Shown here: one piece after another, positions 1,641-12,459 of the stretch
How the letters are laid out: each line of letters starts with the position of its first letter
Position numbering within the stretch: position 1 is the first letter of the stretch
DNA from: a virus
Lineage: Duplodnaviria; Heunggongvirae; Uroviricota; Caudoviricetes
Virus record (IMG/VR): IMGVR_UViG_2675903434_000005
DNA length: 12,547 nucleotides
Strand: one strand, 5' to 3'
Program-made: the position numbers and the translations under genes
The notes under the pieces: generated by a model
What the model was told of the DNA's origin: nothing
Seen by the model: the letters and a program-made list of their open reading frames with translations, nothing else
Databases searched by the model: none

Positions 1641-4112
1641 TTAAGAATCAGCCTGACTCGGGATCAGTTTTTGCCAGATAACTGAAACGTATTTTGCCTG
1701 GTAACGGGCGTCATCAAGTGCATTATGGCGCTCACCTTCGAATGGAATAGCCGTTCTGGCATCGAAGTCTATGGCTTTCCCCAGCTCAACGATTGTGCGT
1801 ACATCGCGATCGTTGTAGTAACGCCACGGGCAGGGGATCCCCTGCCGTTCGTATGAACGGCGCAAAATCGTGTTGTCGAAGTTGGCTCCATTTCCCCAGA
1901 CCTGAACAAAAAATTCACCGGAGTTTTCGTCGATAAATTCCCACAATTGTAACAGTGCATCATCTAACGGGATTTCATCGGTCATAATGGCAGATTGCGC
2001 TTCGCGTGATTGCTTAAGCCACCATTTAATGGTGTCCCGATCAATGACTCCGCCAGCAGTTTCCAGATCGATAGTCTTACTAAATTCCGGTCCCATATCT
2101 CCGGTTTGCGGATCGAAAAATATTGCACCTATTGAGATGATCGGGGCATCAGGATTTTTTCCCATGGTTTCAAGGTCGATCATTAGATGGTCACACGTCC
2201 TGCTGGTGGATGTGATTTCTTGATGACCGTTCACCTTAATTGAGTGATCTGCCGTCTCGCCAGTTTCATTATCGCTATCGTGATGCTGATTGCCGCCAGT
2301 GTTCTCCTTGTGTGGATGTTCAGCGCCTTCCATTTCCTCCGGATCATCTTCCTGAACTTCAATCTGATACTCTTCATCGAATGTTTCCTGGTATGTTGCG
2401 TCGCCCATTACCGCGCCACAATCAGGGCAGTTGCCGCCGCCGGTCTGACCGCAGGCGGTGCAGACTTTTTCCACTTCCTGTTGCGCCACTGATTCAGGCT
2501 GTTTCGTTTCTGGCTCGTTTTGTAACGCATTTGGGCTGTTTTGTTCCGCTTTTTGGTAGTTCCGTTCCGATTCATGCTGGTTCTGGTTCACAGAATCGCG
2601 GGTCTGGATCCCCTTAACCCATTTCGGATCATTCGGGTCACTAATCCCTTCAACAAATTCACCACGTGATGCAGCAAGCAACTTATCGGCGTCAGGCTGG
2701 ATGATATTGGCTGCCTGCATAATTTTGTTTACTTCGTCAGCGGTAACTTTTATCGGCTCTGGTTGTTCTGAATCTTCAGCGGTATCTACATTTTGCGGTA
2801 AGCCCGTGTATGTGCCATTTTTTCGGGCAAAATATTCTTCTTTTGTGATTTCAGTGGCGCCAGCAGCCAGTGCCTTATCCAGACCAGAAAGTTTGTTTGC
2901 GCGACCGTATTTTTCTCCGTCCTTATCTGCGAAGAGGAAATAGAACGGCCCCTCACGCTCTACAGATGGTTCAGCTTCCGGCGCGGTTTCATTTTTTGGG
3001 ATATCAGATACCTCAGTTTCCACTGCATCAGTTTGTGTTTCTGATGACTGGAGAACATCAACAGTGCCCAGGTCTGTTTCTTCATTCTCAAACACGCCCT
3101 TTGTCGTCAGGTATTCGCAGATATATTTGTTCAGTGCTACGGGATCTTTGTGAATGTCGATCGGACGCTCACGGACAAGGCCAAAAATAGTTTGGCGGTC
3201 GTAGCGAAGGGCATCAGGCTGTTTGCGCATTGATGCCGAGATACGCTTCCAGTCTTCGCGGTCGTTGTCGATAACTTCATTTTTTGCCCAGCGATGGATG
3301 CTGCCGTCAATGTTTCCGGCATCCACATCACCAGGCCAGAGAGCGTAGGCCAGTTCGTCATCCAGTGTTTTCCATGTCTGCTTGTATTCGCGATGAATGG
3401 CAGCAATGACCGGGCTGATTTTTCCTGTTGAATTTTCAGTGTACTGTTGATTGGCTCTGGCGCGGGCGAGATCAACAACAGACGTGTATTTTCCGGTTTC
3501 CTTGCGTTCACCTTCGCGACGTTTTTTCCAGATGCGCATCTCTGCCTGAATTTCGGGCCATTTAGCACCAGGAATACATTTATGCTTAACCCACCCAATG
3601 GCGTGCAACTTAAGCTCCGGATACATGGCGTTAACTTCTGGCATTTTCATCAACGCTTCAACGATATGTCCGTCGAATGTTGCCATGTCTTCCTGCAACA
3701 ATTCCTGTGCGCTAATAACCATATCAACGGTGATGTTTTCACATGTGTCGAACTTAACCATGACAGCGTTCTGTACTTCAGGGGCCAGCTTGTCAAAAGT
3801 GACGTTCATCGGATCGGATTCAGTCTCAACCGGGACAAAAGAAGCAGACTCCTCATCCCAGCGGTTTTCCTGCATATATTCAGCATCCCATGAATCGAGG
3901 GCAGGGCGGGGTATGCCAGGTTTATCCTCGCAGACAATAAATTTATAAGCGCAGTCCTGAGCAGCCGGATAATGTTCCAGGAATTGCCAGTGAAATTTTG
4001 CTCGAGCACGGCGTTCGTCGCCAGCTTCAATGGCTGTGGCTACAGCCACAGCGCCTTCTTCCCTTGTTGCCAGTTCGTCAGGAATAGCGGCGCAAATAAA
4101 GACTTTACTCAT
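1641..4112 (-). CDS. Exonuclease, intact YdfE-like: RecE-like N-terminal region, central CxxC-x7-CxxC zinc ribbon, C-terminal DEDDh 3'-5' exonuclease domain
   Basis: ORF track 1641..4148. Start set at ATG 4112 (MSKVFICAA), which has a GAGG Shine-Dalgarno about 10 nt upstream. C-terminal ~190 aa show DEDDh motifs: MIDLETMG (Exo I), WGNGANFD (Exo II), HNALDDARY (Exo III). The middle holds CTACGQTGGGNCPDCG and Asp/Glu-rich linkers. Occupies the position of ydfE in the Qin gene order. Confidence 0.8.
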   Translation of the reverse strand: MSKVFICAAIPDELATREEGAVAVATAIEAGDERRARAKFHWQFLEHYPAAQDCAYKFIVCEDKPGIPRPALDSWDAEYMQENRWDEESASFVPVETESDPMNVTFDKLAPEVQNAVMVKFDTCENITVDMVISAQELLQEDMATFDGHIVEALMKMPEVNAMYPELKLHAIGWVKHKCIPGAKWPEIQAEMRIWKKRREGERKETGKYTSVVDLARARANQQYTENSTGKISPVIAAIHREYKQTWKTLDDELAYALWPGDVDAGNIDGSIHRWAKNEVIDNDREDWKRISASMRKQPDALRYDRQTIFGLVRERPIDIHKDPVALNKYICEYLTTKGVFENEETDLGTVDVLQSSETQTDAVETEVSDIPKNETAPEAEPSVEREGPFYFLFADKDGEKYGRANKLSGLDKALAAGATEITKEEYFARKNGTYTGLPQNVDTAEDSEQPEPIKVTADEVNKIMQAANIIQPDADKLLAASRGEFVEGISDPNDPKWVKGIQTRDSVNQNQHESERNYQKAEQNSPNALQNEPETKQPESVAQQEVEKVCTACGQTGGGNCPDCGAVMGDATYQETFDEEYQIEVQEDDPEEMEGAEHPHKENTGGNQHHDSDNETGETADHSIKVNGHQEITSTSRTCDHLMIDLETMGKNPDAPIISIGAIFFDPQTGDMGPEFSKTIDLETAGGVIDRDTIKWWLKQSREAQSAIMTDEIPLDDALLQLWEFIDENSGEFFVQVWGNGANFDNTILRRSYERQGIPCPWRYYNDRDVRTIVELGKAIDFDARTAIPFEGERHNALDDARYQAKYVSVIWQKLIPSQADS

Positions 4113-4750: not shown

Positions 4751-4808
4751 AAAAAGGGCGGCAGAGCAGTCACGGAGTAAAACTGATACCGCCAAACGTC
4801 ACCAGAAA
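4751..4808 (-). ncRNA. dicF: DicF small regulatory RNA (antisense regulator of ftsZ and other mRNAs)
   Basis: Minus-strand sequence TTTCTGGTGACGTTTGGCGGTATCAGTTTTACTCCGTGACTGCTCTGCCGCCCTTTTT matches the E. coli DicF sequence as I recall it, including the 3' U-tract terminator. It lies between the ydfC-like gene and dicB, as in Qin. Confidence 0.7.
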
Positions 4809-9652: not shown

Positions 9653-9821
9653 TTTTGGTTCAACTAAATACAACGTCAGTTTTGAAGAATGGCATGAACT
9701 GTTAATGGACTATGCAGAGTTACGTGGTGGCAGTGCTGCTGATGCTGAAGCATGGCGTGATGATTATGAAGCAGGAAAAACTCCGGTCGAAGCATATTGT
9801 GATGAGTGGGGCGATGAATGA
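9645..9821 (+). CDS. Small acidic Trp-rich protein (58 aa)
   Basis: Translated by hand: MADFGSTKYNVSFEEWHELLMDYAELRGGSAADAEAWRDDYEAGKTPVEAYCDEWGDE. GAGGAAG Shine-Dalgarno about 7 nt upstream; overlaps the upstream stop and ends in an ATGA overlap with the next ORF. Confidence 0.5.
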   Translation: MADFGSTKYNVSFEEWHELLMDYAELRGGSAADAEAWRDDYEAGKTPVEAYCDEWGDE

Positions 9822-10134
9822 GCGAGGTTAATTATCAGGAAGGGCATGAAACGGCGGGGCAAGCAAAAACAGTGGCATGGCGATATCGCTACGTGAAAAA
9901 AAAGGCGTTACGGACTTTCAGGGGAAGTAGTGGTCTGGTGACTGGAAATATGTACCGAAAAAAGAGGATTGTAACGACAGGCCGAACTATGAAATTCAGG
10001 CCTTATTCACTGCCCCGCCAGTCCCGGTTACATCAGAAGAACTGGTTAAAGCTGTGCACTTTTATGAACAACTAAAACGCGAAAATCCACCAGCATCCGG
10101 AAACCTGATTACAGATTCCCAGATAAGGCAATGA
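9818..10134 (+). pseudogene. Disrupted coding region: ATG-initiated frame and stop-coupled frame differ by -1 (frameshift pseudogene or programmed frameshift)
   Basis: Frame A (ATG 9818, coupled to the upstream stop) becomes Lys/Arg-rich and ends at 10075. The -1 frame holds a protein-like 67-codon stretch (WSGDWKYVPKKEDCNDRPNYEIQALF...DSQIRQ) ending in TGA 10132-10134 coupled to a downstream ATG, but has no start and follows TAG 9928-9930. A_AAA_AAG heptamers are phased in frame A at 9898-9904 and 9958-9964. Confidence 0.4.
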
Positions 10135-10229
10135 GCTACCTGGCGCAGAACGGGCTGATAAGTATGGGGAATGTTTTACGATGAATATTTAGACTAAAGA
10201 GTTTGTAACGCTATGTAAGTGATTTTTTC

Positions 10230-10258
10230 TGGTTTAGATATTTATATGTCCGGCCAAA
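10230..10258. repeat. Upstream copy of an imperfect ~30-bp direct repeat flanking the AT-rich membrane-protein gene
   Basis: TGGTTTAGATATTTATATGTCCGGCCAAA here versus TGGTTTAGTTGGATATTTACTGTGCCGGACAAA at 10501-10534. Confidence 0.5.
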
Positions 10259-10304
10259 TTGAGGTGTGTTTAAATGTAATTGCACATTGATTGTAGGAGG
10301 AATA

Positions 10305-10484
10305 ATGAAAAACGCATTGCAGTTTTTGTTTGTTGCGTTCTGGTTGTTCGTATCATGTATGCCCATCATCTTCACAGCAAGGTATATGGAAAAAGTTGAT
10401 GTTTTGATATTAATATTTGGATATATAAATGCCCTTTTTTTAGGGGTGTTCATGGCGGTCATGTGCATTGAATACTGGCGGTAA
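10305..10484 (+). CDS. Small two-helix membrane protein (59 aa) on an AT-rich islet
   Basis: Part of ORF 10266..10484. Start chosen at ATG 10305, with a perfect AGGAGG 5 nt upstream. Two hydrophobic helices (ALQFLFVAFWLFVSCMPIIF and VLILIFGYINALFLGVFMAVMCI). GC is visibly lower than in the flanks. Confidence 0.55.
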   Translation: MKNALQFLFVAFWLFVSCMPIIFTARYMEKVDVLILIFGYINALFLGVFMAVMCIEYWR

Positions 10485-10500
10485 ATACAGCGAACGCCAT

Positions 10501-10534
10501 TGGTTTAGTTGGATATTTACTGTGCCGGACAAAA
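10501..10534. repeat. Downstream copy of the ~30-bp direct repeat, immediately upstream of the candidate hok promoter
   Basis: See the repeat at 10230-10258. Confidence 0.5.
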
Positions 10535-10539
10535 ACGGT

Positions 10540-10567
10540 TTGCGGGGAAATCTTAGTTAAGTAGAAT
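10540..10567 (+). promoter_or_regulatory. Candidate hok mRNA promoter
   Basis: TTGCGG (10540-10545), 16-bp spacer, TAGAAT (10562-10567). The predicted transcript start falls at about 10574, inside the 5' element that is complementary to the mRNA 3' end. Confidence 0.4.
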
Positions 10568-10686
10568 GACTGCGGGTGCTTGAGGCTATCTGTCTCAGGC
10601 ATGAACACCAAAAGGCAGATAGAGAAAAGCCCCAGTTAACATTACGCGTCCTGCAAGACGCTTAACATTAATCTGAGGCCATATCT

Positions 10687-10746
10687 ATGCGACACATAGA
10701 GATTAGCCTCTTACGGACCGAAAGGTCAAGGAGAAGCAGGCTATGA
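10687..10746 (+). CDS. Short leader ORF translationally coupled to hok (mok-like, 19 codons)
   Basis: ATG 10687 with GAGG upstream; its TGA stop (10744-10746) overlaps the hok ATG (10743-10745) as ATGA. Confidence 0.35.
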   Translation: MRHIEISLLRTERSRRSRL

Positions 10747-10898
10747 AGCAGCAAAAGGCGATGTTAATCGCCCTGATCGTCATCTGTTTAACCGTCATAG
10801 TGACGGCACTGGTAACGAGGAAAGACCTCTGCGAGGTACGAATCCGAACCGGCCAGACGGAGGTCGCTGTCTTCACAGCTTACGAACCTGAGGAGTAA
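10743..10898 (+). CDS. hokD: Hok/Gef-family type I toxin (51 aa), RelF/HokD-like
   Basis: Translated by hand: MKQQKAMLIALIVICLTVIVTALVTRKDLCEVRIRTGQTEVAVFTAYEPEE, which has the Hok/Gef signature (single TM helix, TRKxLCE, conserved periplasmic tail). AAGGAG Shine-Dalgarno upstream. Position before the Rem-like and YdfU-like genes matches Qin hokD. Confidence 0.8.
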   Translation: MKQQKAMLIALIVICLTVIVTALVTRKDLCEVRIRTGQTEVAVFTAYEPEE

Positions 10899-10967
10899 GA
10901 GACCTGGCGGGGGAGAAATCCCTCGCCACCTCTGATGTGTCAGGCATCCTCAACGCACCCGCACGTA

Positions 10968-10993
10968 ACCCGCTTCGGCGGGTTTTGTTTTTT
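10968..10993 (+). terminator. Intrinsic terminator at the end of the hok transcript
   Basis: ACCCGC-TTCG-GCGGGT hairpin followed by TTTTGTTTTTT. Confidence 0.6.
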
Positions 10994-12412: not shown

Positions 12413-12459
12413 ATGCGTGATATTCAGATGGTTCTTGAGCGTTGGGGAGCGTGGGCGGC
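12413..12459 (+). CDS. N-terminal fragment of a Q-like late antiterminator, interrupted by an N gap
   Basis: ATG 12413 with GGAG 7 nt upstream. MRDIQMVLERWGAWAA matches my recollection of lambdoid Q-family N-termini. The reading frame after the gap cannot be established. Confidence 0.45.

Follow-up and report, generated by a model that had tools for sequence, protein, structure and literature searches.

The window analysed here is a stretch of 12,547 nucleotides (nt) from a Caudoviricetes record (IMG/VR IMGVR_UViG_2675903434_000005), and it spans the immunity region and the early region of an Escherichia coli prophage of Qin/lambdoid type. Just upstream of the hok/sok locus it holds an AT-rich islet with an open reading frame (ORF) on the + strand, termed ORF59, which runs from the ATG at 10305 to the stop at 10484 and encodes 59 amino acids (aa). 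The islet is probably one allele of an exchangeable cassette, with ORF59 as a real gene for an inner-membrane helical hairpin of 59 residues that would act in the membrane via helix packing. As judged from the way its sequence is conserved, ORF59 is a genuine protein-coding gene under moderate purifying selection. A first reading of the nucleotide sequence (the original prediction) had described the same islet as an acquired moron cassette bracketed by direct repeats of about 30 bp.

The length of ORF59 is not above chance, since an ATG-initiated ORF of at least 59 aa occurred in about 20% of random sequences of islet composition; its significance therefore had to come from comparison with other alleles. 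Word-based protein searches returned only E. coli and Shigella copies of at least 71% identity, many being truncated. An exhaustive HMMER search retrieved a protein of 59 aa (P0037) that aligned from end to end with no gap at 41% identity (E = 3.7e-9), and a profile search retrieved a protein of strain TA280 (P0050/P0059, WP_024211701.1) that was 76% identical to ORF59. Three diverged alleles were distinguished, each of exactly 59 codons and aligned without a gap: allele A is the copy in the window, allele B that of strain TA280, and allele C that of a prophage remnant adjoining ttcA.

Start, stop and length were shared by the alleles at nucleotide identities as low as 59%, while the flanks gained insertions and deletions. 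Between A and B, the ORF was 84% identical with 0 gaps, compared with 62% and 7 gap columns for the 5' flank and 70% for the 3' flank. Ratios of non-synonymous to synonymous substitution rates (dN/dS), calculated according to Nei-Gojobori, were 0.35 for A-B, 0.23 for A-C and 0.26 for B-C, with dS saturated in the comparisons with allele C and the A-C ratio therefore rough. Nucleotide identity at the three codon positions was.87/.92/.75 for A-B and.58/.72/.48 for A-C, the second position being the most and the third the least conserved. Different codons were used for 14 of the 24 residues identical between A and C. When the observed substitutions were placed at random, the frame stayed open in 3-7% of the trials (A/C), and an open frame combined with at least the observed amino-acid identity was obtained in 0.04-0.1% of the trials. 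No other frame was kept, as allele C has stops in all five of them. Finally, ORF59 was intact in 100 of 100 fetched DNA copies of allele A (metagenomes, Shigella, and IMG/VR). The original prediction had named this ORF as the only gene of the islet, which holds for the conserved frame, and had looked to its presence in relatives, where the ORF was indeed found conserved.

Two further frames were considered and rejected. An antisense ORF of 85 aa (10211-10468, - strand) is broken by stops in allele C, and a 72-aa extension from a GTG start is out of frame and likewise stopped in allele C. In the phage records ON470612.1 and PV340562.1, it is the antisense frame that is annotated (as 'hornerin' and 'hypothetical protein', respectively) and not ORF59.

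The ribosome-binding site of ORF59 had been called a perfect Shine-Dalgarno; the motif itself, AGGAGG, is as claimed, but the spacing to the ATG is just 4 nt. A common polymorphism, A10298G, turns the motif into AGGGGG, and its equivalents read GGGGGG in allele B and AGGGA in allele C.

Hydropathy analysis showed two hydrophobic segments and a grand average of hydropathy (GRAVY) of 1.31. AlphaFold2 placed helices at residues 2-25 and 30-58 with a mean predicted local distance difference test (pLDDT) score of 69, a model of moderate confidence built from 11 sequences. Both predictions bear out the two-helix membrane protein proposed at the outset. The residues M1, L5, L8, W13, S17, C18, P20, I21, I22, T24, L36, F38, G39, A43, L44, E56, and W58 were invariant, and N42, G47, F49, I55, and R59 nearly so. 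Helix 1 has a conserved face, W13...S17-C18-x-P20-I21-I22-x-T24, and helix 2 carries a small-residue zipper, G39xxxA43xxxG47. Small-residue zippers mediate helix packing in other membrane proteins. The motif suggests that ORF59 may act within the membrane by packing its helices against those of another ORF59 molecule or of a membrane protein of host or phage. All alleles have a basic N-terminus (MK, MKK, MRK), and the loop between the helices, neutral in allele A, is acidic in B (TAEEMEEVD) and C. Following the positive-inside rule, both ends would therefore probably face the cytoplasm, with the short loop in the periplasm.

No significant match to ORF59 was obtained in Pfam, PHROGs, NCBIfam, or PADLOC, the last of which was run on alleles A, B, and C. 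The best family matches, phrog_2720 (function unknown, E = 0.93) and TIGR04104 (E = 0.2), were taken as chance. A sequence profile search of the PDB gave 0 matches, and Foldseek against BFVD gave nothing below E = 0.89, a two-helix hairpin being too simple a fold to inform. With Rfam, at gathering as well as permissive thresholds, only hok/sok and DicF were detected in the window, and weak snoRNA-type matches in the islet were regarded as chance. Superinfection exclusion, a type I toxin and abortive infection had been suggested as functions of the small membrane protein; none of them found sequence support in the four family collections. No paper on ORF59 was found in a literature search for its accessions and peptide sequence, and a preprint on Hok diversity makes no mention of neighbouring genes. 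The most fitting classification for ORF59 is a new orphan family within the small membrane proteins of prophages.

Of 5426 complete E. coli genomes, 1570 carried allele A, and identity was at least 95% in each of them. Allele C was found as a single copy in 1045 of the 5426, among them B2 strains such as Nissle, ATCC 25922, LF82, and ST131; the two numbers are separate counts, and the sets may overlap. Carriers of ORF59 include O104:H4, ST131, Nissle 1917, and LF82. A tblastn search against 50,697 phage records detected three E. coli phages only, all with allele A, and a scan of genome contigs detected ORF59 in two Shigella flexneri genomes only. Contig matches in Algoriphagus, Prevotella, and Dokdonia were chance 20-mer matches without homology to the islet.

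Allele C lies in a prophage remnant of ~1.6 kb adjoining ttcA; fragments of an integrase gene and of a DUF1627 gene and a frameshifted ABC-permease gene surround it. In K-12, the site adjoining ttcA is that of the Rac prophage. In the remnant of Nissle (L107 7213-9398), which contains the frameshifted metal ABC permease gene, allele C is the sole intact reading frame, and 1045 complete genomes have kept this remnant. In the scaffold of strain TA280 that carries allele B, a gap of N (L108 6215-6480) is flanked by a duplicated allele-B cassette; this is most likely an assembly artefact.

The islet (346 nt) has a GC content of 0.358 compared with 0.476 for the whole window, and no other window of 346 nt in the sequence has a lower value. 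Windows of this size with a GC content as low made up 0.6%, and every one of them overlaps the islet, in agreement with the sharp GC dip first noticed there. The boundaries were taken from comparison with other prophages. On the left, at 10184/10185, homology with locus L006 and with prophages carrying a 27-aa ORF in the same slot stops after '...ttttacgATGA' (10178-10184), and this point coincides with the stop codon of the upstream early gene. On the right, at 10530/10531, homology with O157-type and 27-aa-type hok loci begins at 'AAAAACGGTTTGCGG' (10531). These data support the islet as a compositionally distinct, exchangeable cassette. The locus 10050-10760 is 100% identical to that of E. 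coli O104:H4 2009EL-2071.

The ORF59 cassette is one of three alternative small-gene cassettes located just upstream of hok/sok in E. coli prophages. One of the other two holds a hydrophobic ORF of 27 aa (MTWPEA...CRWG, stop), which is ATGA-coupled to the upstream gene and whose TAA stop overlaps AAAAACGG and the beginning of the hok promoter module. The other holds a hydrophobic ORF of 34 aa (WP_001278450.1) and a hairpin; alongside the 27-aa ORF it makes up the O157:H7 type. No sequence similarity of ORF59 to the 27-aa ORF was detected. Slot contents were counted in 100 usable IMG/VR hok loci with a shared promoter 15-mer: ORF59 occupied 27, the 27-aa ORF alone 41, and the 34-aa ORF 21 (9 of these also with the 27-aa ORF), and other content was found in 11, about half of it broken 27-aa ORFs. 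All that the window has of the 27-aa ORF is a stub at the position where L006 and at least 41 IMG/VR hok loci start it.

Prophage hok/sok loci were almost always preceded by a small hydrophobic ORF of one of these three unrelated types (27, 34, or 59 aa; L003 2246-2470, L006 3180-3262, and IMG/VR loci L109 onward). In one case, L006, the 27-aa ORF is followed by a convergent ParD/ParE type II toxin-antitoxin pair (3386-3948) in place of hok/sok. The Qin slot also gains relBE, so that the interval from the early genes to DUF968-RusA-Q is a hot spot for toxin-antitoxin systems.

The hok sequences joined to alleles A and B are 94% identical, yet the two ORFs diverge by 16% and the flanks of the ORFs by 30-38%. 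Near-identical hok together with diverged ORF and flanks is the pattern left by cassette exchange when recombination takes place in conserved flanks. In the mechanism proposed, the cassette would sit in the early-right (nin-like) region of Qin/lambdoid prophages, between the last upstream early gene and hok/sok, and phages would exchange it by recombining within the conserved sequences on either side, namely the 3' end of the upstream gene on the left and the hok promoter on the right; ORF59 would be its sole functional element.

Each of the three alleles has hok or a remnant of it immediately downstream. The segment 10100-10620 was covered to at least 80% in 1549 records, compared with 1552 records with the islet, which means that the hok promoter and leader almost always follow allele A. 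Allele B is followed by an intact hok/sok (115 bits), and allele C by a 3' remnant of hok that is 81% identical over 62 nt (score 64 compared with a shuffle maximum of 27). The hok promoter region, which lies outside the cassette, was conserved in every hok locus compared.

The Qin-type prophages PhiR42_1 and UMNK88 have an uninterrupted run from the ORF59 cassette through the hok promoter and the sok/mok leader to the ATG of hok. There follow an IS/ISNCY insertion sequence element, ydfW, flxA, ydfV, and relBE, and only then the hokD coding region. The window segments 10098-10744 and 10729-10992 correspond to L002 3999-4645 and 7919-8183 (L005 3004-3650 for the first), with an overlap of 16 nt (10729-10744). 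The K-12-style arrangement of relBE-hokD without sok looks like an insertion of ~3.3 kb which split hok from its own control region.

Consensus scans, which can miss weak or non-sigma-70 promoters and cannot exclude a small RNA, detected no sigma-70 consensus promoter and no intrinsic terminator on either strand of the islet. By the same scans, alleles A and B showed no promoter or terminator, the sites of B and C were not above shuffle expectation, and allele C had no promoter-like site before the ORF and a single terminator-like site inside it. Manual inspection gave the -10-like hexamers TGTAAT (10275-80) and TTGAGG (10259-64), which were rejected, as they have no conserved partner hexamers in B or C. 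Folding of the leader gave nothing beyond shuffles (z = 0.03), and the fold of the spacer between the ORF59 stop codon and hok was not significant against shuffles (z = -1.2). As no promoter or terminator of its own was detectable, we infer that ORF59 is transcribed by read-through of the early-right operon, which is present on the + strand of the window, and is translated from its own Shine-Dalgarno.

The upstream early gene is a pseudogene in the window; ~170 nt were lost between 10093 and about 10104, and an intact version of 171 aa is found at L006 2666-3181. Downstream of hokD, an ORF of 279 bp, DUF968, RusA, and the Q antiterminator were assigned by homology with NC_018661. The small RNA DicF at 4756-4807 (-) (Rfam RF00039, 76.7 bits) confirms a Qin-like dicB operon on the opposite arm. 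A run of N is present at about 12430-12445. The coordinates of all features of the locus are given in Table 1.

Table 1. Features of the ORF59 cassette and its surroundings; positions refer to the window unless another locus is named.
Feature	Position	Strand	Basis or remark
ORF59, gene of a predicted 59-aa two-helix membrane protein (MKNALQFLFVAFWLFVSCMPIIFTARYMEKVDVLILIFGYINALFLGVFMAVMCIEYWR)	10305..10484	+	three gapless alleles, dN/dS, codon-position pattern
Allele A (window copy)	10305-10484		
Allele B (strain TA280)	L108 6580-6759		76% amino-acid identity to A
Allele C (prophage remnant adjoining ttcA)	L106 829-1008		41% amino-acid identity to A
Shine-Dalgarno AGGAGG	10295..10300	+	read from sequence; 4 nt before ATG 10305
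T7 run in ORF59 codons 44-46, frameshift hot spot	10435..10441	+	frameshifted database proteins
AT-rich exchangeable cassette (islet), allele A	10185..10530	.	lowest GC; boundaries from prophage comparison
Upstream repeat copy	10230..10258	+	imperfect direct repeat; 45 nt inside left cassette boundary
Downstream repeat copy	10501..10533	+	imperfect direct repeat; last 3 nt only in hok module common to other prophages
Stub ATG AAT ATT TAG (MNI, stop)	10181..10192	+	sits where L006 and at least 41 IMG/VR hok loci start the 27-aa ORF
Upstream early-region gene, internally deleted and frameshifted pseudogene	9818..10184	+	RefSeq 'frameshifted; internal stop' in the identical NC_018661 locus
hok promoter	10540..10567	+	-35 TTGCGG 10540-45, 16-nt spacer, -10 TAGAAT 10562-67; read from sequence; outside cassette
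hok/sok locus	10574..10898	+	leader with sok/mok 10574-10745 (Rfam RF01794, 106.7 bits); hokD coding sequence 10743-10898 (RefSeq)

Several observations weigh against ORF59 as a conserved membrane-protein gene in its own cassette. None of 60 sampled rows had a RefSeq feature under the islet, and the Prokaryotic Genome Annotation Pipeline (PGAP) does not call the gene. The family was confined to Escherichia and Shigella in the searches run. Polymorphism within allele A amounted to 7 non-synonymous to 1 synonymous changes and looks neutral, a ratio that is underpowered, as it has a probability of ~10% even at dN/dS = 0.3 and seven sites cannot separate 0.3 from 1. Frameshift products of the T7 run (...FFRGVHGGHVH) are present, although rare, in the protein database (P0019, P0021, P0024, P0025, P0028). 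To these are added the saturation of dS towards allele C, the moderate confidence of the AlphaFold2 model, the derivation of helix packing from the zipper motif, and the lack of a consensus promoter or terminator in the islet scans.

At the T7 run, +1 and -1 frameshift variants recur (P0019, P0021-P0025, P0028), for which sequencing errors and slippage are both possible explanations. No such frameshift was seen among the 100 fetched DNA copies.

The most direct challenge is that the islet is non-coding, an AT-rich spacer or regulatory DNA (bound by H-NS, for example, or serving as an upstream element of the hok promoter), in which ORF59 would be a chance frame of a T-rich strand and hence automatically hydrophobic. 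The frequency of ORFs of this length in random sequence, the absence of a PGAP annotation, the polymorphism within allele A, and the lack of homologues beyond Escherichia and Shigella would all fit this view. It is very unlikely in the face of three alleles that keep start, stop and length while their flanks take up insertions and deletions, of a codon-position pattern and dN/dS values of 0.23-0.35 that fit coding, of simulations (P <= 0.001), and of the lack of conservation in every other frame. If the frame is coding, its product could be a type I toxin whose system has so far gone unrecognised, paired with a small RNA of the islet that overlaps ORF59 or is antisense to it, as its small size, hydrophobicity, strong Shine-Dalgarno and prophage location beside a known type I locus would suggest. 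Promoter- and terminator-like sites were missing from both islet strands, however, those of B and C did not exceed shuffles, the leader was unstructured, Rfam gave no match in the islet, and neither the known toxin families (Hok/Gef, Ldr, Ibs, TisB, ShoB, Fst, and others) searched for with Pfam, NCBIfam, and PADLOC nor Hok were matched, which makes such a toxin slightly less probable still. Of the known type I toxins, most have a single helix instead of two. For the overall explanation, an exchangeable cassette with ORF59 as a membrane-protein gene, two further alternatives concern the origin of the cassette and its neighbour.

According to the original prediction, a moron had been put in by an event that generated or used the direct repeats, so that the repeats would mark the insertion boundaries. 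Imperfect direct repeats do exist at the place claimed, with about 26 matched positions and 3 gaps, and Smith-Waterman alignment of the 5' against the 3' flank gave a score of 25 compared with a shuffle mean of 13.8 (P about 0.001); the atypical composition of the islet also speaks for an insertion. The downstream copy was said to sit directly on the hok promoter; it ends 6 nt before the -35 hexamer, at about -73 to -41. All alternative arrangements diverge at the cassette boundaries given above, that is, 45 nt to the left of the first copy and at the 3' end of the second, and not at the repeats. Alleles B and C have no such repeat (P = 0.84 and P = 0.62), and in A the two copies are as polymorphic as the remaining flanks. 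A query with chimeric junctions revealed no empty site, precise deletion, or repeat-recombined junction in the 5426 complete genomes, and the comparison of related prophages for presence or absence exactly between the repeats showed a slot that holds other ORFs. Because the boundaries lie elsewhere, the repeat is restricted to A, and no deletion junction exists, insertion bounded by the repeats was rejected as highly improbable; the 30-bp repeats are an allele-specific feature. A tie to the neighbouring locus was considered because hok is the strict neighbour of ORF59 in three old alleles and because allele C has outlived the decay of the remnant around it. ORF59 might be a functional partner of hok/sok that modulates Hok, protects against it, cooperates with it, or serves as a second membrane effector, the pair being carried as a unit. 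The position of all three diverged alleles immediately 5' of hok or its remnant, the lack of a terminator between ORF59 and hok, and the intact allele C in more than 1000 genomes within an otherwise decayed remnant are in favour. However, ~70% of the sampled prophage hok loci have unrelated 27-aa or 34-aa ORFs instead of ORF59, hok has its own promoter, the 94% identity of the hok sequences joined to A and B indicates that ORF59 and hok recombine independently, and conserved gene order alone can explain the linkage. ORF59 also outlasts the splitting or deletion of hok in Qin-type prophages and with allele C, which speaks against dependence on hok. Because most hok loci do without ORF59 and ORF59 outlives hok in two lineages, this partnership was rated as quite unlikely. 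The wider proposal that ORF59 is a selected membrane component working with or replacing hok/sok (as a Hok immunity protein or modulator), or else a host-domesticated independent effector, was considered unlikely on the same grounds, if marginally less so.

As an exchangeable small-membrane-protein gene, ORF59 adds a well-supported entry to the poorly catalogued set of small membrane proteins of E. coli prophages. It also corrects an annotation error, as RefSeq is blank at this position and some phage records call a non-conserved antisense frame. A small hydrophobic ORF before nearly every prophage hok/sok could matter for the use of hok by phages, and an ORF59 that interacted with Hok or excluded phages would count as a new effector among small proteins. 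At present, ORF59 is a solid but ordinary orphan gene.

Among known systems, the morons of the lambdoid nin/early-right region (in the sense of Juhala/Hendrix) resemble ORF59 in being extra genes of atypical composition which are replaced in relatives at the same slot and are not needed for the core phage programme. ORF59 differs in having no detected promoter or terminator of its own, which places it outside the strict definition, and in being one of three alternative cassettes instead of an insertion compared with an empty site. The term acquired moron cassette is thus apt as far as composition, exchangeability, and a genuine small membrane-protein gene are concerned, but not with respect to independent expression signals or an empty site.

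With the Hok/Gef type I toxins, ORF59 shares its small size, strong hydrophobicity, predicted location in the inner membrane, and prophage origin, and it adjoins hok. It has no sequence similarity to Hok or to Pfam Hok_Gef, is predicted to form two helices instead of one, and is without a mok-like leader ORF, a folded leader, or a detectable antisense RNA.

The 27-aa and 34-aa ORFs of the same slot agree with ORF59 in position, strand, small size, and hydrophobicity. They have one helix compared with the two of ORF59 and no detectable sequence similarity to it. ORF59 starts from a Shine-Dalgarno of its own, while ATGA couples the 27-aa ORF to the gene before it.

Class II holins and pinholins such as S21 of phage 21 consist of two helices in about 68 aa, with a glycine zipper in the second helix that drives oligomerisation; they have a highly charged cytoplasmic C-terminal tail, and their genes belong to the lysis cassette beside the endolysin gene, downstream of Q. 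ORF59 is similar in size, in its predicted two-helix hairpin, and in the small-xxx-small-xxx-small motif of helix 2. Unlike these holins, it matches no holin family in Pfam or PHROGs and has no charged C-terminal tail but ends with ...IEYWR right after helix 2, and its gene lies outside the lysis cassette, upstream of DUF968, RusA, and Q and beside hok.

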